From Candidatus Omnitrophota bacterium (GTDB lineage Bacteria > Omnitrophota > Gorgyraeia > JAHJTE01), in contig JAHJTE010000003.1 of NCBI GenBank assembly GCA_018830005.1, forward strand, positions 71,674-135,673: a DNA stretch of 64,000 bases. The letters are read 5' to 3'. The translations under genes were made by a program, and so were the position numbers. Below are positions 8,403 to 29,724 of this stretch, one piece after another. The stretch's first letter is position 1. Each line of letters opens with the position of its first letter. The notes under the pieces are model-generated. The model saw only the letters and a program-made list of their open reading frames with translations. It did no database searches and was not told the DNA's origin.

Positions 8403-9209
8403 CTACCCCTTTATTGCACCGGAAAGATATTCTGCCTTTATATATTTCTGAAAAGTAAAAGTTAATATCAAAACAGGAATAGTAATAATCATTGCATAGG
8501 TTGCTGAATAAAATATGTCTGGGTGTGATACATAATAATACATCTTAAGCGGCAGGGTCGGATGTGCTAGGGTCAAATAAGACGCATATATGAATTCATC
8601 CCAAGAAAGTAAAAATGAGAATATTCCGGCAACAACTATACCGCTAAGTGAAAGCGGTAAAACTATCCAGATGAATGCCCTTAATCTAGAGCAACCATCA
8701 ATGCGTGCCTGCTTTTCAAGATCAATTGGTATGCTAGAAAATATCCCGACAAGGATAAAACAAGCAACTGGTAAGATCTTTATAAGGTGTGCGATAGCCA
8801 GACCGAAATAAGTATCAAAAAGACCAATTTTTATAAAGCCGATTGATATCGGTAGGGCTATGCTTATCTCCGGCATCATCCTAAGCATAAATATAAGTAA
8901 AATTAATATATAGCGCAAGCGATAATTGAATTTTGAGATAGCATAGGCTGAAGGTATAGCAATTAATAAACTAAAAAACGTAGACAGGAGCGCAACTACA
9001 AGACTCTTTCTTAGCGGCAAGAAAAACGTTCCTCGGGAGGCAAATATATCTTTAAAATGACTTAAGGTAAAATGCCTTATTAGATAGGATGGTTTTTCAG
9101 TAAAGATATCACTTGGCTGACTCACTGATATCTTAAACATTATATAGAGCGGAAAAAGCAAAAGGATCGTAAAGATAATAACTACTAAGAATATGGTTGC
9201 TTGCTTCAT
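8403..9209 (-). CDS. ABC transporter permease (MalG-like)
   Basis: Six TM helices in the track ORF. Adjacent to the ATPase in operon arrangement. Confidence 0.8.
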   Translation of the reverse strand: MKQATIFLVVIIFTILLLFPLYIMFKISVSQPSDIFTEKPSYLIRHFTLSHFKDIFASRGTFFLPLRKSLVVALLSTFFSLLIAIPSAYAISKFNYRLRYILILLIFMLRMMPEISIALPISIGFIKIGLFDTYFGLAIAHLIKILPVACFILVGIFSSIPIDLEKQARIDGCSRLRAFIWIVLPLSLSGIVVAGIFSFLLSWDEFIYASYLTLAHPTLPLKMYYYVSHPDIFYSATYAMIITIPVLILTFTFQKYIKAEYLSGAIKG

Positions 9210-9240
9210 CTCTTAAAATATTTTTTTATTTGATTCTAAA

Positions 9241-10104
9241 TTAAGCTAGGCTTAACCCCTTCTTACCCACTGCCTTTATGTAAATTACTAAGGCTGCTAA
9301 TATCATTATAAATAACAACACAGAACTTGCCGCAGAAAGATAGGCATTATTATATTCGGCATATTCCAAATAGGCATAGGTACCCAAGACTTTCAAGTTC
9401 TGCCCCATTAAAATAAATGGCAGTGCAAAAATCCTAAAGGCATCAATACCACGAATAATTACAGCACAGGTTATGTAAGGAGCTAGCAATGGCAGGGTTA
9501 TCTGTCTGAAGATATGTAAACTCCCTGCACCGTCAACGCGTGCCTGTCTGTATAAATCCTTATCTATGGACTGGATGCCAGCTAAAAGTATCAACATTAC
9601 AAGCGGCGTTACCTTCCAACAATCTGCTAAAACAATCATAATCAAACTATTTATGCCGCCCGACATCCAAGAAATAGGTGCCTTTATCAAAGATAAATCC
9701 ATTAGTATCCTATTAATCCAGCCTGAACTTGAAAATATATAACTCATCATAACTGCAACTACAACCGTAGGGATAGCAAGCGGCAGGATAAAAAGCATAC
9801 GCAAGCCCGCTGTTATCTTGGTATTTCTGGATAATATCAGTGCTAAAATTAAACCAAGTGTAATCTCCAGGACCAGGCTTACTCCGGCAATAAATATGGT
9901 ATTGTATAGTGCCTTTCTAAAGCTTGCCTGCTGGATGAGATCTTTATAATTTGAAAGGCTAAATTGATTGCTAAGGGTATCTTTAAAACTTAAGATTAGA
10001 GTACGCCAGATAGGTAAAAACATAAAACATAATAAAAAAATCAGTAAGGGAGAAATAAGTATTATCTCCAAGTACCATCTCTTTATGAATTTTATAAATC
10101 TCAT
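9241..10104 (-). CDS. ABC transporter permease (MalF/UgpA-like)
   Basis: Multi-TM permease with an EAA-type region (ARVDGAGSLHIFRQITLPLL). Confidence 0.8.
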   Translation of the reverse strand: MRFIKFIKRWYLEIILISPLLIFLLCFMFLPIWRTLILSFKDTLSNQFSLSNYKDLIQQASFRKALYNTIFIAGVSLVLEITLGLILALILSRNTKITAGLRMLFILPLAIPTVVVAVMMSYIFSSSGWINRILMDLSLIKAPISWMSGGINSLIMIVLADCWKVTPLVMLILLAGIQSIDKDLYRQARVDGAGSLHIFRQITLPLLAPYITCAVIIRGIDAFRIFALPFILMGQNLKVLGTYAYLEYAEYNNAYLSAASSVLLFIMILAALVIYIKAVGKKGLSLA

Positions 10105-17622: not shown

Positions 17623-17650
17623 AGTATACCTTAAAAAAATATATTGTCAA
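17623..17650 (-). promoter_or_regulatory. Sigma70-like promoter (TTGACA-16-TATACT) for the rrf2-metY operon
   Basis: Minus-strand TTGACA at 17645-17650 and TATACT at 17623-17628. The downstream leader contains the palindrome TATCATTATAAT. Confidence 0.4.
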
Positions 17651-17668: not shown

Positions 17669-18082
17669 TTATTCTTCGCTTATAAACTGTTCTACCCTCT
17701 CTTTTATAATATCCCTTGTGTTTCTAAACGCCGAAAGTCTTTCCTTGCCAGTTCTGCCAACAAAAACAGGGTCTTCTATACTCCAATGGATCTTCTTGTG
17801 CTTACCCTGAAATACAGGGCAAACCTGCTTTGCGTTATCGCAAACAGTTATCACGTAATCAAAGCTCTGTTTCAAAAACTCCTTGATTGACTTTGAGTAT
17901 TGTCCGGATATATCAACTCCAGCTTCCTGCATGACCTTGATTGTCAAAGCATGTATGTAGGCAGGTCTAAGACCTGCGCTTGAGACTTCGAATCTATCAG
18001 CAGCCCTTGCCCTTAGGAAACCTTCTGCTATCTGGCTGCGGCAAGAATTTCCCGTACACAAGAATAATACCTTTTTCTTCAA
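17669..18082 (-). CDS. arsC: Arsenate reductase, thioredoxin-coupled LMW-PTP family
   Basis: CTGNSCRSQIAEG P-loop plus downstream Cys pair (TVCDNAKQVCP) typical of Trx-coupled ArsC. No arsB/arsR nearby. Confidence 0.7.
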   Translation of the reverse strand: MKKKVLFLCTGNSCRSQIAEGFLRARAADRFEVSSAGLRPAYIHALTIKVMQEAGVDISGQYSKSIKEFLKQSFDYVITVCDNAKQVCPVFQGKHKKIHWSIEDPVFVGRTGKERLSAFRNTRDIIKERVEQFISEE

Positions 18083-18083
18083 A

Positions 18084-21000
18084 TTACTCCTTTTTCTCCT
18101 GTTTTTTCTCAGCCACTACTTTTTGAGCTACCTCCGCAGGCACTTGTTCGTACTTCTTAAAATGCATGGAGCAGTTGGCGCGGCCAGAACTTAAAGACCT
18201 GAAGACACTTGCATAGCCAAACATCTCTGCTAAGGGAGCCTCGGCATATATAACCTTCTGATTTGCCTTTGCCTCGATATTTATAATTTTGCCTCTTCGC
18301 TGGCAGATATTTCCCACAAGACTATTTATGTATTCTTCAGGAGAAGTCACTTCAAGTGACATATAGGGCTCTAATAACACGGGCCTGGCTTTCGTAAACG
18401 CATCTTTAAACCCGCCGATAGCTGCCTGTTTAAATGCAATTTCCGAAGAATCCACCTCATGGAATGAGCCATCTAATAGATTTACTTTCACATCTACGAC
18501 AGGATAACCAGCAACTATACCTTTAATCATAGCTTCTTTAACGCCCTTTTCTACAGCCGGAATAAATGACTTGGGGATTGCACCGCCTCTAATGCTATCT
18601 ATAAATTCTAGCCCCTTACCTAATTCTGCGGGAGAAATATCCATAACCACATGACCATATTGGCCTCTACCTCCTGTCTGCTTAACATGTTTATACTCTC
18701 CAGTTGCCTTATCAGTTATGGTTTCCTTATAAGCTACCTTTGGCTTGCCTACAACCGCATCCACGCTAAATTCATTTTTTAATCTGTCTACGATAACCTC
18801 AAGGTGTAATTCTCCCATTCCAGTGAGGAGCGTCTCTTTGGTCTCCATATCAGATCGAACAACAAAAGTAGGATCTTCTTCTGATAATCTTGCTAATGCC
18901 TTTCCAAGCCTGTCTTGATCCTGGCGGGTCTTAGGAGAAATACTAAGGGAAATTACTGGCTCAGCAAATTCCATCCTCTCAAGCACAATAGGGCTATCAA
19001 TATCACAGAGGGTATCGCCAGTTATTGTCTTATCTAGGCCAACTAAGGCCACAATATCTCCTGCAAACGCGTTATCTACATTTTTTCTCTGATTAGCATG
19101 CATTTCCAAAATCCTGCTAATCCTTTCCTTTTTATCTTTGGTTACATTAAGTACGTATGAGCCAGACTCAAGTACTCCGGAATAAAGCCTTACAAAAATT
19201 AGCTTTCCAACATGAGGATCAGACTGTATCTTAAATGCAAGTGCACAGAACGGTTCTTTATAGTCAGCTTTTCTCTGAATAATCTTTTCAGGATCTTGGG
19301 GATCATTACCGGAAATCGCAGGTAAGTCTATAGGGGCTGGCAAAAAATCAATTACTGCATCAAGAAGCCTTTGCACGCCTTTGTTTTTTAAAGCTGAACC
19401 GCACAAAACAGGCACCAGCTTATTAAGAATTGTACCTTTGCGAATGGCCTTGCGTAGCTCCTCTTGCGTCAAAGAGTCTTCGGATTCTAAATATTTTTTC
19501 ATTAATGCATCATCAAACGCAACCGCCTTCTCAATCAACATGTGGCGGTATTTTTTTGCCACTTCTTTATGCTCTTGGGGAATATCCTCTGACTTGAAAT
19601 CCTTACCCTTTGATGCTTCGTCATAGTAATAGGCCTTCATCTCTAAAAGATCAATAACACCTTTAAAATCGCCTTCAGCGCCTATTGGTATTGTAAGGGC
19701 CACAACATTATCCGTAAGAATCTTCTTAATACTTTCATAAACCTTAAAATAGTCAGCACCAATACGGTCCATTTTATTTATAAAAACAATCTTGGGTACA
19801 TTGTATTTATCTGATTGGTGCCAGACAGTCTCAGACTGGCTTTCTACGCCGCCCACAGCACAAAATACTGCCACTGCCCCATCCAGAATGCGCAAACTCC
19901 TTTCAACCTCTACTGTAAAATCTACATGGCCAGGAGTATCGATAATACTTATGCGCTTTTCCTGCCAATAACAGTTGGTTGCCGCAGAAGTAATAGTAAT
20001 CCCTCTCTCTTGTTCCTGCTTCATCCAGTCCATCTGCGCATTACCATCATGGACTTCGCCAATCTTATGGGTTCTGCCTGTATAGAATAATATCCTCTCT
20101 GTAAGAGTAGTTTTTCCAGCATCGATGTGTGCCATAATGCCGATGTTTCTCACATCGCCTAAACTGACTTTGGGAGAAACCTGGATTTCTTTCTTTGGTT
20201 TTTGCTCTGGTTCCTTGACCTCTGCAGACTCCTGCTCTTTGGCCTCTTCTTTTTTCTCTTCAACAACTGGTTCAGGTTGTTTTGGCTCTTCTTTTTCAGG
20301 TGGTACTTCTTTTTTTATTTCTTCTTTGGCTGGAACTTGCTCTTTGCTAACAACCTCAACCGAATCTTGCACTACCGCCTGCTGCTTTTTCTCCTGAACT
20401 GTCGAGTCTCTTAATTTCTCCATAAGCTTAACTCTCTCGGTGTTAACAGACTGCAGTTGCTTCTCGATCAATTCCAATTCACTCTCAAGTTGGGTATATT
20501 CTTCATTGAGTCTTTCAAAATCCTTTTTTGAAACCCACTCACTTTCCTGCTGTTTCTTTTTTAATACCGAAGCTGTATCTGCATGGGCCTTTGACTCCTG
20601 GGTGAGTCTTTCGATTTTAAACTTAAGCCTTAGATTATCCTTGGATATCCTCTTATTCTCATCCTCAGATAGTTTAATTTTATCTTCTAAGAGCATCCGC
20701 TCTCTTTTAAGCTCCTCATTCTTGTTAAACGCCTCTAGCAATTCCTTCTCTTTATCTTTTAATTTATTAATAACCTCAAAGCTTTTCTCTCTGGCCTTGC
20801 TTAAATCCTCATCGCTTCTTTCTGTCCACTCTTGTCTTTTCGCTAACCTCTCATTTAAGTCCTTTTTCTCTGCTATGGCTACAGCAAGCTCTAGTCTTGC
20901 CTTGTCAAAATCCTGTTTTGATTCCTGCAAGGCATTGCTCAAAGAGGCCATCTCCTCTTGCAACTTTAATATACTCTCGCCCTTAGAATCTAGTTCTGGC

Positions 21001-21119
21001 AGTTTAGCATAATCTGAGATTCTAGCCTTTTTCTTCGAACCTTTATCGCCTCCTAGCAATAGGCCGTAGGCAACAAGGGCAACGCCGGCAAAAACTAATG
21101 CTCCAATTAGTATAACCAT
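18084..21119 (-). CDS. Elongation factor G paralog fused to N-terminal TM helix, coiled coil and PEK-rich linker
   Basis: Residues ~318-1011 carry full EF-G motifs ([27 protein letters not shown], domains II-V). Residues 1-22 are hydrophobic, 40-240 heptad-like and K/E-rich, 240-315 PEK low-complexity. The frame is continuously open over 3 kb. Confidence 0.8.
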
Positions 21120-21126
21120 GCTGCTC

Positions 21127-22080
21127 CTAAATCTTTATATTTAGTCTGGCTTTCTTACTGTTAAAAAGGCAACGACAGGATGTTGCAAGGCTCTCCTTAA
21201 TCGGATATGAATGCCTGAAGCCAGTAGCTGTTATTTTTTCTTGAGAATAAACTCTGTCTTTCAAAAAAAACTTCAATCTTCTTCCTGCGTAAGGAAAGGC
21301 CAACAAAAAAGGTGTGAATCTCCTGGAAATCTCATAAGGAGGTCTTGCAGAAATTGCACTTGCCATGATATTCATTACCTCTTTTGTAGTCAGGACATCT
21401 CTATCAGCTACAAAAAATGTGCCTTTTAAAAACTCATCATTTCTAAGTGAAAAAATCATGGCATCAACAACATTCTTTACATATACAAGATGAAATTTAC
21501 TTTCTCCTTTATTCACTAAAGGCAGAAGTCTATATTTTAATAAATGTAACATTCTCTTCAAAAGATGCGGCTCATCCTCACCATAGACCATACACGGCCT
21601 TAAGATGACAACCTCAAGCCCCTTCTTTCTATACTCAAGCACTACCTTTTCTGCTTCTATCTTTGATTCTGCGTATATATTGGTTGCAACAAAAGGCAGG
21701 TCTTCTACTAAAGGTATATGCGGATTCCCACTTACTACAGATACAGAACTTAGATAAATCACTCTTTCAACAGCTAATTTTAACGCAAGCCTACAAATAT
21801 TCTCAGTCCCTCTGACATTAACCTTATGCAAGGCATCTATGTTATCATTGAGGACATATCCAGCGCAGTGAAAAATAACGTCTATTTTTTCGTTAATATT
21901 TTTAAACAAAGAGTCAAATTCTGTAATGTCAGCATATATGAATTTTACTCCATATGGCTCTAATATTTTCGTGTTGCTTGCCTTCCTCACCAAGCAAAAA
22001 ATGTTAGCATGAGACTTTGATAATTCTTCTACCAGATGCCTTCCGATAAATCCTGTTGCTCCTGTAACTAAGATATTCAT
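21127..22080 (-). CDS. NAD-dependent epimerase/dehydratase (SDR family)
   Basis: N-terminal [15 protein letters not shown] Rossmann motif. Confidence 0.75.
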
Positions 22081-22113
22081 AAGCTTATTTTTTCATTTAC
22101 TAGAGAGCATGAA

Positions 22114-23904
22114 TCATCTTCTTAGTAGTTTCTTGATTTCTATTAATTTACGCCTGGCGTGTTCCTGACCGGTTTTTATAAACAGCCTTGCTTTGTAAAA
22201 CTCATACCAATCTGCAAGCTTAGGAATGGGATGAATATATACGTCAGCTTGCTGGCGAGAGTTTATTGCCATACTATATTCCATGGCGTGGAAACTATTT
22301 ACAATGATATTATAGATATTAAGCCTCTTCTGCTCTAAGCGCACTATATCATGAGGCGAAGGCAATGTGTTAACAGCAATAATCCTTTTTATGCCTATTT
22401 TGGATAAGACACTCACAGGAAGAGGATTGACAATACCACCATCTACAAGCTGGATATCAGAGTTATATCTTACTGGCTCAAATACACCGGGTATGGCAAT
22501 GCTTGCCATAACTGCATCTAGGAGCTTACCTTTATCAATAACAAACTCTCTTCTCTTCTTTATATCACAGGCTACTATTTTTAAAGGTATCTTGGTATCA
22601 GAAAATGTTTTATTCCCTAGATAAGATTTCAAGATTCTTTTTACAGCCCTGCCCTTTATAAGGCCCTTGATCGGCAACGTAGGGTCAACTAAAAGCAATG
22701 TCCTTAATTTACTCTTAAAACTTAAAAATAATTTTTCGATTTCAGAGGTGCTGAAGCCCACAGACCAGAACGAAGCAATAACTGCACCTATGCTTGTTGC
22801 TGATATGATATCTATGGGGATCTTCTCATCCTTTAATACCTTAAGAACTCCGATATGCGCAAGCCCCATTGCACCTCCGCTTCCTAAAACAAGGCCTACT
22901 GCAACTTGGGAAATCTCTCTGGCTATGCGCCTTATTGTCTTCTTATAATTTTGTCTATCTTGTGGAAGTGTGGCAAAAATATCTTTTGAAAGAATTTTAA
23001 GTTTATATGCATAAGGGGTTTCGGCATAGAATCCATCTTGCTTTAAGATTATATATGCAGACTGCTTCCTGTATTTAGCGAATAGTCTCTCTAATCTCTT
23101 AACTAAGGTAGAAACCTTAGTAAGCGAAGCCCCGTCAGAAGCGCTTAGGATATGACAAATATTTGATTGTTTAAAAATTTCAAGATTAATATCATTAACT
23201 TTACCTGAGATATCTACTAAGACATAGTGGTATTCTTCGCTGAAAGAACTTAATCTTAACGCCACATCTCCTTTATTTAATATTGAGGTGGATTTTAGTA
23301 TTAAAACATTTTTACCTGATTCTCTTCTTAGGCTCTTTGCCAGGTCCTGAACATAAGAAGATGCATTCTTGGCACTTTCTAAAGTATAGATTGCTATTAT
23401 TGTACTTTCAAAAATTTCCTTAAAGGTTTTTTGCCTGATTCTCCTGGATAAAGAACGACTTAGGAAAGAGCCGAACTTAGGCACCTTGCGTAGTATATAC
23501 TTAAAATCCTTCCTGACTATCCTTAATAGAAGACAATCATTTAATGTCCTGGCACTTACTGTATGCGGTTGGCCTGTAAGCGAAGAAATAGAGCCAAAAT
23601 AATCACCTCTTCTCACATGCTCAATTATTACATCCTGAGGCTTCCTGGTCTTGGCAGCGGCATGATAAATCTCAACCCTACCGGAAACCATACAATAGAA
23701 ATAATCAGGGGGGTCAGCTTTTTTGTAAATGATCTTACCCCTTTCAAATTCCACTAATTCTAGTTTCGAAGCTATTAACTTTTTCTCAAGGTGAGATAGA
23801 TCCAAGAACAAAGGAAGGCTATCAAGTATTGATAGTTTATTCGTTAGATACGTTGCGTCTGGCATGAGAATATTATAACCCGCAAGATAAAAAATCCCAA
23901 GCAA
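22114..23904 (-). CDS. Cyclic-nucleotide-binding domain protein fused to patatin-like phospholipase (NTE family)
   Basis: cNMP-binding region FERGKIIYKKADPPDYFYCMVSGRVEIY. Patatin motifs GSGGAMGLAHIG, TSIGA (GxSxG-like) and DGG. Confidence 0.75.
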   Translation of the reverse strand: MLGIFYLAGYNILMPDATYLTNKLSILDSLPLFLDLSHLEKKLIASKLELVEFERGKIIYKKADPPDYFYCMVSGRVEIYHAAAKTRKPQDVIIEHVRRGDYFGSISSLTGQPHTVSARTLNDCLLLRIVRKDFKYILRKVPKFGSFLSRSLSRRIRQKTFKEIFESTIIAIYTLESAKNASSYVQDLAKSLRRESGKNVLILKSTSILNKGDVALRLSSFSEEYHYVLVDISGKVNDINLEIFKQSNICHILSASDGASLTKVSTLVKRLERLFAKYRKQSAYIILKQDGFYAETPYAYKLKILSKDIFATLPQDRQNYKKTIRRIAREISQVAVGLVLGSGGAMGLAHIGVLKVLKDEKIPIDIISATSIGAVIASFWSVGFSTSEIEKLFLSFKSKLRTLLLVDPTLPIKGLIKGRAVKRILKSYLGNKTFSDTKIPLKIVACDIKKRREFVIDKGKLLDAVMASIAIPGVFEPVRYNSDIQLVDGGIVNPLPVSVLSKIGIKRIIAVNTLPSPHDIVRLEQKRLNIYNIIVNSFHAMEYSMAINSRQQADVYIHPIPKLADWYEFYKARLFIKTGQEHARRKLIEIKKLLRR

Positions 23905-23955
23905 AATTTGCTTGGGATTATCTTTCTCGCCGACTCTACCTAACTATAATTCTTT

Positions 23956-29480: not shown

Positions 29481-29500
29481 AGTTTAAAACATCATCATCT

Positions 29501-29585
29501 TCCCTCCGCTGGCATTATCCAGATCAGGTTCATTGGGTCATCTGCTTAAAAGCAGAACTCTCAGATCGTTACACGACCTCCCCAT
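29501..29585 (-). promoter_or_regulatory. TPP (THI-box) riboswitch
   Basis: Minus strand reads GGGGAGGUCGUGUAACGAUCUGAGAGUUCUGC...UGACCCAAUGAACCUGAUCUGGAUAAUGCCAGCGGAGGGA. This matches the conserved CUGAGA and ACCUGAUCUGGAUAAUGCCAGCG...GGGA THI-element cores. Confidence 0.85.
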
Positions 29586-29724
29586 TGTCAATTATATTAA
29601 ATCACTATTTTCCTCTTTTGTCAATAATACATTAAATTCTCCAAATTATAGTCCTCGCTCCTGCCCCAAGGCTATGATTTTCCTAACTGGTTAGGAAGCC
29701 TTAAGGAATACTGCTTTAAAAAAA

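Follow-up and report, generated by a model that had tools for sequence, protein, structure and literature searches.

A 64,000-nucleotide stretch of contig JAHJTE010000003.1 from a Candidatus Omnitrophota bacterium (hereafter the window) encodes on its minus strand a 1011-aa protein that we read, with somewhat better than even confidence, as a membrane-tethered canonical elongation factor G (EF-G), likely a second copy, carried on an N-terminal module specific to Omnitrophota. The product is a known enzyme in a previously undescribed architecture, conserved across the phylum and missed by annotation. Its open reading frame (ORF; 1011 codons plus stop, 18084..21119), taken from the ORF list and backed by more than 119 full-length homologs, begins with ATG and lies in DNA of ~39–41% GC. 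At ~40% GC, about 6.3% of random codons are stops, and by our own estimate the chance of finding 1011 open codons is near 1e-29. A Shine-Dalgarno (SD) sequence, AGGAG, read directly from the DNA (21124..21128), stands 4 nt 5′ of the ATG and overlaps the TAG stop codon (21127–21129) of the upstream epimerase gene. A preliminary description, made from the letters of this DNA, had pointed to the single continuously open frame, unlikely to arise by chance, and to a four-part architecture of hydrophobic helix, heptad region, low-complexity spacer and intact EF-G. Both are confirmed here, the architecture by the agreement of hydropathy, sequence periodicity, AlphaFold2 (AF2) models and Pfam; the strand had to be corrected to minus, on which all protein features given below lie.

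The EF-G moiety, residues 317–1011 (18087..20171), is complete as judged by Pfam, by the NCBIfam EF-G equivalog model TIGR00484, by end-to-end alignment with EF-G and by a confident AF2 model. All five EF-G Pfam domains exceed their cutoffs: the G domain with its G′ insert (GTP_EFTU, residues 323–594, 19338–20153), domain II (EF-G_D2/GTP_EFTU_D2, residues 623–706, 19002–19253), domain III (EFG_III, residues 718–792, 18744–18968), domain IV (EFG_IV, residues 793–911, 18387–18743), and domain V (EFG_C, residues 914–1000, 18120–18380). The TIGR00484 score is 1041.7 bits (cutoff 659.4), with model positions 4–690 of 691 covered. Against the EF-Gs of E. coli (4v7d) and T. thermophilus (1dar), residues 317–1011 align end to end at ~846 bits, and weaker matches are found to mitochondrial EF-G1 (583 bits), mtEF-G2 (494 bits), and Tet(Q) (399 bits). 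The G1 motif or P-loop AHIDAGKTT, located by motif scan (residues 330–338, 20106..20132), is invariant in 95 full-length homologs, as are DTPGH with the catalytic His (H398), GGRGQYGH (816–823), and H-x-VDSS (887–892); the last two form the domain IV tip loops characteristic of an EF-G that translocates, and these motifs align with those of the E. coli protein. All sequence tests identify the EF-G half as a canonical member of the EF-G family, in agreement with the earlier view of an intact EF-G running from AHIDAGKTT through domain V, and we consider it rather probable that the gene product is a catalytically intact, canonical-type EF-G fused to a membrane module.

That module (N-module) occupies residues 1–316 and begins with a predicted transmembrane (TM) helix (residues 2–22, 21054..21116), whose best 19-residue window has a mean Kyte-Doolittle hydropathy of 2.55 and whose mean over the helix is 2.38, in keeping with a bitopic anchor of N-out/C-in topology. 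Two AF2 models were obtained, one of the full-length protein (mean predicted local distance difference test score, pLDDT, 77.8) and one of the N-module alone (mean pLDDT 86); they place helices at residues 2–22 (pLDDT ~80–84), 45–192/194, and 198–237/242, a non-helical stretch at 193–197 or 195–197, and disorder at 243–319. Among 128 homologs the tail that precedes the anchor helix is 0–9 residues long with a mean K+R of 0.08, against 4.88 in the 20 residues that follow it, and the asymmetry points in the same direction in 99.2% of them. By the positive-inside rule this places the bulk of the protein, EF-G included, in the cytoplasm, and the helix should be a reverse signal anchor that leaves EF-G cytoplasmic. 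It is followed by a basic juxtamembrane segment with a K/R cluster, predicted to be disordered (residues 23–44, 20988..21053; pLDDT <50), and by a first coiled-coil helix (residues 45–192, 20544..20987), modelled by AF2 as a single helix with pLDDT 72–98. In a 120-sequence alignment, conserved hydrophobic columns of residues 45–235 show a power of 2.29 at a period of 3.5 residues and only 0.05–0.31 at the other periods (3.0, 3.6, 3.67, 4.0, and 7.0), as expected for the heptads of a coiled coil. The helix is interrupted at S-E-W-V-S (residues 193–197, 20529..20543), which AF2 leaves non-helical and in which S193, E194, and W195 are nearly invariant. A second coiled-coil helix (residues 198–242, 20394..20528), assigned from the alignments and from AF2, contains the module's most conserved block, xEFNKLNEEYTELEKELE. 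The last part of the module is a linker predicted to be disordered (residues 243–316, 20172..20393; pLDDT ~30), gap-rich and of low identity, which varies in length and sequence among 133 homologs (median 78 aa, range 44–130) and consists of 25% E, 16% P, 11% A, and 11% K. The TM and coiled-coil checks therefore bear out the hydrophobic N-terminal helix and the long heptad region (residues 45–242) of the preliminary description, and its Pro/Glu/Lys low-complexity spacer is recovered as the E/P/A/K-rich linker. No Pfam-A, NCBIfam, or PADLOC family, among them ZipA, EzrA, DivIVA/DivIC, the RNase Y N-domain, SMC, and TonB, matches residues 1–316; as judged from these profiles, the N-module belongs to no described family and is a new protein family with two Trp motifs.

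Searching 5.8 billion protein clusters, whose homologous representatives came from NCBI, JGI, ENA, and Logan assemblies, we found more than 119 full-length homologs of 985–1172 aa, with 56–63% identity over 95–100% of the query. Essentially all of them open with a similar hydrophobic helix followed by a K/R cluster. The 120-sequence alignment has no gap between residues 61 and 220, so the length of the stalk formed by the coiled coil is fixed. W98, F131, and L204 are invariant in the module and ~20 more positions are conserved at ≥90%; in alignment A2, F201, N205, E207, and E212 are invariant too. Two related motifs stand out, RREEWVxKSEE (residues 94–104, with W98) and SEWVPKxEFNKLNEEYTELEKELE, the second of which (SEWVPK consensus) coincides with the helix break. 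In comparisons with the two closest relatives, the proportion of nonsynonymous differences (pN) is far below that of synonymous differences (pS) in every region, with TM helix, coiled coil, and linker included, the synonymous differences being saturated (coiled coil, pN 0.31 versus pS ~0.89; EF-G part, pN 0.16–0.17 versus pS 0.77–0.81). Purifying selection thus acts on the extension as on a translated protein.

A scan with an N-module profile, one genome per GTDB species, showed at least 95 species genomes that encode it, and 80 loci were retrieved. Nearly all of the module-bearing genomes are titled Candidatus Omnitrophota or Omnitrophica; the exceptions among record titles are a few coarse ones (“uncultured Planctomycetales”), one Margulisiibacteriota, and one Patescibacteria. 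An EF-G G1 motif follows in frame 300–700 nt downstream of the module in 69 of the 80 loci, and of the 79 loci that could be classified, 68 have the fused architecture. The divergent N-modules recovered by an exhaustive HMM search are fused to EF-G too. EF-G is the sole fusion partner seen for the complete module, other partners having been discarded as candidates when the matches of intermediate length turned out to be EF-G fusions cut by contig ends. Such conservation of a membrane-anchored EF-G across the nano-sized Omnitrophota suggests that part of their protein-synthesis machinery is kept tethered to the membrane. Three other proteins of 614–724 aa (P0255, P0282, and P0320) carry a similar N-terminal TM helix and a repeated first coiled-coil segment, followed by the c-di-GMP-related MshEN and PilZ domains; the TM helix and first coiled-coil segment are all that they have in common with the module, and the resemblance suggests a recurring design in which a membrane stalk presents a cytoplasmic domain.

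In ~9% of genomes the N-module stands alone. At six loci (L003, L034, L068, L070, L080, and L081) its ORF ends with a real stop codon after 235–289 residues (e.g., L080:10001–10771), and no EF-G motif occurs in up to 10 kb downstream. At three of these (L034, L080, and L081) the standalone gene sits between pheS-pheT and ppiB-uvrD...nifU...rny, exactly where L001 and L091 carry the fused gene, so that in this clade the EF-G half is cleanly missing from a syntenic position. In a module tree the deepest branches are fused forms, and standalone forms nest at several points within the fused set; this is a quick neighbor-joining tree of the coiled-coil domain, rooted with a distant standalone family, and its topology is only indicative. 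The members of that distant family (~225 aa; L084:10001–10687 and L086:10001–10690) have a TM helix, a coiled coil, and both Trp motifs, and their genes occupy a conserved position, preceded by those for a hybrid histidine kinase and an Hpt protein (in L086 with a TPR protein as well) and followed by an aminotransferase gene. Most genomes have the module fused to EF-G and some have it as a separate protein, which by Rosetta-stone logic suggests that it partners EF-G or the ribosome functionally, and the N-module is likely an autonomous membrane protein with such a partner. A further locus, L082 (7204–10240), has the N-module (314 aa) and EF-G (711 aa) as adjacent ORFs in different frames with a 44-nt overlap. 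The shift occurs at A8/A7 homopolymer runs within GCAAAAAAAAGAGGCGAAGAAAAAAATT, and an independent ENA assembly carries an identical 711-aa product (P0169); the split could be an assembly indel, a true gene fission, or slippage. At L091, the first ~109 codons of the N-module (8861–9191), which presumably include the TM helix, are in another frame than the rest (9011–10000), an apparent further frameshift near the 5′ end of a fused gene.

Public annotation does not show the architecture, because the NCBI pipeline trims these genes to normal EF-G length. The NCBI record for the window gene (P0001, 100% identity) has 779 aa and begins at M233, an internal ATG (20421..20423) whose alignment column is not conserved and which we regard as a mis-annotated start. 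About 25 NCBI entries named “elongation factor G [Candidatus Omnitrophota],” of 692–713 aa, are among the best matches to the EF-G part, and short entries of this kind correspond to continuous long ORFs (P0122 to L002, P0135 to L038, P0136 to L066, P0131 to L073, P0159 to L022, P0166 to L044, and P0171 to L053). Their N termini all fall within the conserved end of the linker (P-x-P-K-I-S-L-E-K-V-RNIGI), with the first residue rewritten as Met. At L083, the closest relative (75% identical), L090, and L091, 303–330 open, in-frame module codons lie upstream of the annotated start. ORF inspection thus places unannotated module coding DNA at 20421–21119 (minus strand) in the window, L083:5938–6867, L090:9092–10000, and L091:9011–10000, that is, ~0.7–1 kb of conserved coding sequence per gene. 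The existence of a separate, soluble short form of EF-G in Omnitrophota was considered and rejected, every short protein checked (P0001, P0121, P0122, P0135, P0146, P0158, and others) being a truncated call.

Based on these features, we propose that the N-terminal anchor would insert co-translationally into the inner membrane and leave most of the protein on the cytoplasmic side. The coiled coil (~198 residues, modelled as helices of ~148 and 45 residues split by the SEWV(P)K break) would project as a rigid and probably oligomeric stalk of ~22–29 nm (by our own arithmetic, 148 × 0.148 nm = ~22 nm, plus ~7 nm if helix 2 is extended), and the flexible, acidic, Pro-rich linker, with a contour of up to ~27 nm, would present the EF-G head. 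From this leash of ~30–50 nm EF-G would do its usual job, GTP-dependent translocation and, with RRF, ribosome splitting, and the leash would enrich it at ribosomes on or near the membrane. The protein would most likely be a second EF-G beside a str-operon copy, specialized by location and not by chemistry. Omnitrophota cells are ~0.2 μm across (PMC10066038), and by our own estimate a reach of 30–50 nm covers ~70–90% of the cytoplasm in such a cell; as most of the cytoplasm is within reach, tethering would bias EF-G toward membrane-engaged ribosomes and would not exclude the others. Of the very long proteins of the phylum, 94% carry TM helices or signal peptides (doi 10.64898/2026.06.07.730766), and a translocase locally concentrated at translocon-bound ribosomes may offer an attractive rationale for tethering.

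Several other explanations of the long ORF and of its product were weighed. The reading of the ORF as an artefact, whether a misassembly, a frameshift, or an untranslated leader taken for coding sequence, could appeal to the NCBI calls, only 779 aa here and ~692–713 aa in relatives, and to the error-prone assembly of low-complexity linker DNA (L082 and L091). We give it next to no credence. Misassembly is excluded because the whole continuous architecture recurs in more than 119 cluster representatives and ~70 independent genome loci; in addition, the strong SD sequence precedes the first ATG, the TM helix and the Trp motifs are conserved as protein, and pN stays well below pS from the TM helix through the linker. 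The search for homologous fusions in relatives, proposed in the preliminary description as a check, thus settles that the fusion is genuine. The same description had suggested a Tet(M)/Tet(O)- or BipA-like activity. These factors and LepA are indeed EF-G relatives and give weak, sub-threshold matches, so that the protein might be a specialized ribosome-protection or rescue GTPase and no translocase. We find this very improbable: the curated models for tetracycline ribosomal protection (NF012153 tet_protect, 407.9 versus a cutoff of 775; Tet(M)/(W)/(O)/(S), 292.1 versus 1100), TypA/BipA (TIGR01394, 221.3 versus 757.3), LepA (TIGR01393, 174.2 versus 533.9), RF3 (NF001964, 266.2 versus 473), and EF-G2 (NF009377, 509.7 versus 890; NF058620, 504.9 versus 1000) are all missed, which rules out these identities, while TIGR00484 is passed with a wide excess, and domain IV keeps, without variation, the tip loops expected of a translocating EF-G. 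Given the failed cutoffs and the passed EF-G equivalog, a Tet- or BipA-like function finds no support. It is also conceivable that the fusion is a mere genetic arrangement, from which a free cytosolic EF-G would be released by internal initiation, frameshifting or slippage, or proteolysis of the linker, with the N-module acting separately. Proteases could plausibly cut the long disordered linker, the module does occur as a standalone protein in some genomes, the L082 halves lie in different frames with the same 711-aa call in an independent assembly, and in-frame internal initiation is known, for instance in the E. coli IF2 isoforms. Among 70 fused genes, 21 have an ATG, GTG, or TTG at −14 to −3 before RNIGI (ATG in 3, an SD-like motif in 3), the sole candidate in the window gene being a GTG that directly abuts RNIGI. 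However, no internal start is conserved in these 70 genes, neither there nor at M233, and 49 of them, the window gene included, lack a usable start codon that would give a complete EF-G N terminus; the linker end is conserved as protein and not as a start site; and the fusion has been kept over deep divergence, very divergent N-modules included, which is hard to explain if the covalent link were irrelevant. Release of a free EF-G is accordingly improbable in our view, and the fusion would be obligate in most genomes. In the preliminary description an internal start had been called impossible without an upstream stop codon, an argument that is wrong in principle, as IF2 illustrates; its conclusion holds nevertheless on the count of candidate codons.

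There remains the question of whether the tethered protein is a second EF-G or the only one. The usual position of an EF-G gene, rpsL-rpsG-fusA-tuf, is typical though not strictly defining, and the fused gene lies outside it, as the preliminary description had noted: a motif scan of the window found no S12 or EF-Tu motif and no other translational-GTPase G1 motif, and no S12, S7, S10, EF-Tu, RpoB, or RpoC signature occurs in it or within ±10 kb in ~90 loci (1.41 Mb in total). Nothing relevant was found past either edge of the window, where the extension reached a sister assembly, and a scan of viral contigs for a second EF-G or a str operon found none. In a preprint of June 2026 that covers 176 complete genomes of the phylum, canonical S12-S7-EF-G-EF-Tu-S10-L3 operons are described for several chromosomes, and 51 loci contain at least 10 such genes in this order; a membrane-anchored EF-G is not mentioned there (doi 10.64898/2026.06.07.730766). 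Because of these operons and of the repeated loss of the EF-G half, we consider it quite likely that genomes with the fused gene also carry a str-operon EF-G, and the fused protein is probably a second, membrane-tethered EF-G. The claim of a second paralog in the preliminary description is in this sense probably right. Alternatively, fusA may have left the str operon and joined the membrane module, the fused protein being the only or principal EF-G and all elongation and recycling being membrane-tethered. The EF-G part is fully canonical with invariant catalytic elements, no other G1 motif appears in the 64-kb window or in the ~1.4 Mb of related loci, every checked short EF-G of the lineage is a truncated annotation of the long form, the leash would reach most of a 0.2-μm cell by the estimate above, and in Pseudomonas aeruginosa the main translocase is the EF-G encoded away from the str operon (PMC3832671), a precedent that cautions against assuming the fused copy to be auxiliary. 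Against this stand the str-operon EF-Gs reported in complete Omnitrophota genomes and the absence of EF-G beside the module in L003, L068, and L070, together with its clean loss in L034, L080, and L081; such a deletion would be lethal if no other EF-G were present, and thus argues for one. Moreover, the EF-G domain is no more conserved than neighboring housekeeping genes (in one subclade, mean identity 76.8%, versus 74.4% for PheS, 80.0% for MgsA, 84.9% for NifU, and 72.1% for UvrD). We regard a sole or principal EF-G as unlikely, if worth serious consideration. A wider version of it, in which the anchored protein of many Omnitrophota would be the working and possibly sole EF-G, its coiled coil a docking scaffold, and elongation would be organized from the inner membrane, is in our opinion doubtful; if true, these cells would run a tethered “translation factory,” well matched to the giant proteins of the phylum (10,000–147,000 aa), which take hours to synthesize and are for the most part secreted or anchored in the membrane.

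Our preference for a membrane-tethered second EF-G has to be set against several observations that weigh against it. For this organism the second copy is deduced indirectly, from a preprint that deals with other genomes of the phylum and from the fact that the EF-G half has been lost repeatedly, and the module tree, on which the nesting of the standalone forms depends, gives an indicative topology. Housekeeping-like conservation does not separate a principal from an auxiliary factor. If the leash spans most of a 0.2-μm cell, the selective gain from tethering is not obvious. Genomic context gives no functional hint either: about half of the loci share a pheS-pheT-mgsA...uvrD-nifU-rny neighborhood, which is generic housekeeping, and the immediate neighborhood differs between clades.

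Comparison with known systems helps to place the fused protein. It resembles the canonical bacterial EF-G (fusA, EFG I) in its five domains, GTPase motifs, domain IV tip loops, and passing of TIGR00484, but differs by a 316-residue N-terminal extension that is found in no described EF-G and by a gene that never lies beside rpsL, rpsG, or tuf (~90 loci, ±10 kb). As a precedent, P. aeruginosa has two canonical-looking EFG I-type proteins, EF-G1A and EF-G1B, of which only one is encoded in the str operon and between which translocation and recycling are divided (PMC3832671); both copies are soluble and of normal length, whereas the fused protein has a membrane anchor and its co-occurring str copy is deduced indirectly. 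Subfunctionalized EF-G paralogs are also known as spdEFG1/spdEFG2 and mtEF-G1/mtEF-G2 in Spirochaetes, Planctomycetes, Deltaproteobacteria, and mitochondria (PMC4342817, PMC3150367). These are likewise EF-G duplicates, some in PVC-related lineages, each specialized for part of the EF-G job; the fused protein is nearer to bacterial EF-G (846 versus 583 and 494 bits), and the specialization suggested for it is spatial. Tet(M)/Tet(O)/Tet(Q), BipA/TypA, and LepA/EF4 belong to the same EF2/EF-G superfamily of ribosome-dependent GTPases, but the fused protein falls clearly short of their curated cutoffs. We know of no Tet ribosomal protection protein, BipA, or LepA with an integral membrane anchor; LepA has been reported to be peripherally membrane-associated.

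The layout of the extension recalls the ZipA-type bitopic tether, which has an N-terminal TM segment, a charged region, a Pro-rich flexible linker, and a cytoplasmic globular head, as well as the Pro/Glu/Lys-rich spacer of TonB, a protein of opposite topology to that of the fused protein. The likeness consists in an N-out/C-in anchor, a charged helical region, and a Pro-rich spacer that distances the head from the membrane, and is an analogy of design only: neither protein has a sequence or domain relationship to residues 1–316, and the head here is a translation factor. E. coli IF2 is another translational GTPase with a long, partly disordered N-terminal extension; unlike in the fused protein, that extension has no membrane anchor, and the 70 fused EF-G genes are without a conserved internal start.

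EF-G is among the most studied and most conserved proteins and is regarded as a freely diffusing cytosolic factor. Full-text literature searches yielded no description of a membrane-anchored EF-G, and a broad survey of translational GTPases mentions no membrane, transmembrane, coiled-coil, or N-terminal-extension feature, in agreement with the earlier remark that membrane tethering of a translational GTPase is unusual. If our reading is correct, a core bacterial elongation factor would be spatially fixed, and conserved as such throughout a phylum, for which we found no earlier example. It would also provide a handle on the organization of translation in ultra-small cells for which translational hyperactivity and the production of enormous membrane-associated proteins have been reported. 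In addition, the finding exposes an annotation problem, since ~1 kb of conserved coding sequence is unannotated in many genomes.

Within the window, the EF-G gene is part of a tightly packed, operon-like run on the minus strand (17669–23904). On its 5′ side are genes for a cNMP-binding patatin-like phospholipase (22114–23904) and then an NAD-dependent epimerase (21127–22080), separated from the EF-G gene by a 7-nt gap; on its 3′ side, after a 1-nt gap, follows a low-molecular-weight (LMW) phosphotyrosine phosphatase gene (17669–18082, minus strand). None of these neighbors, nor the Rrf2 regulator gene beyond, is a conserved partner of the fused gene in relatives. A 12-bp hairpin with a T-run lies at 23919–23893, and a near-consensus promoter-like site (TTGACA-16-TATACT) at 17650–17623, 5′ of the Rrf2 regulator gene; the promoter and terminator scan found nothing above shuffled expectation. 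The sole Rfam family above threshold in the window is a TPP riboswitch (RF00059) at 29484–29594 on the minus strand (64.3 bits, gathering score 54.3). Over the whole window (1–64000), the cumulative GC skew declines monotonically, and the minus strand carries 44 of the 52 ORFs that are 150 aa or longer, both of which are consistent with a single replichore with a strong gene-strand bias.

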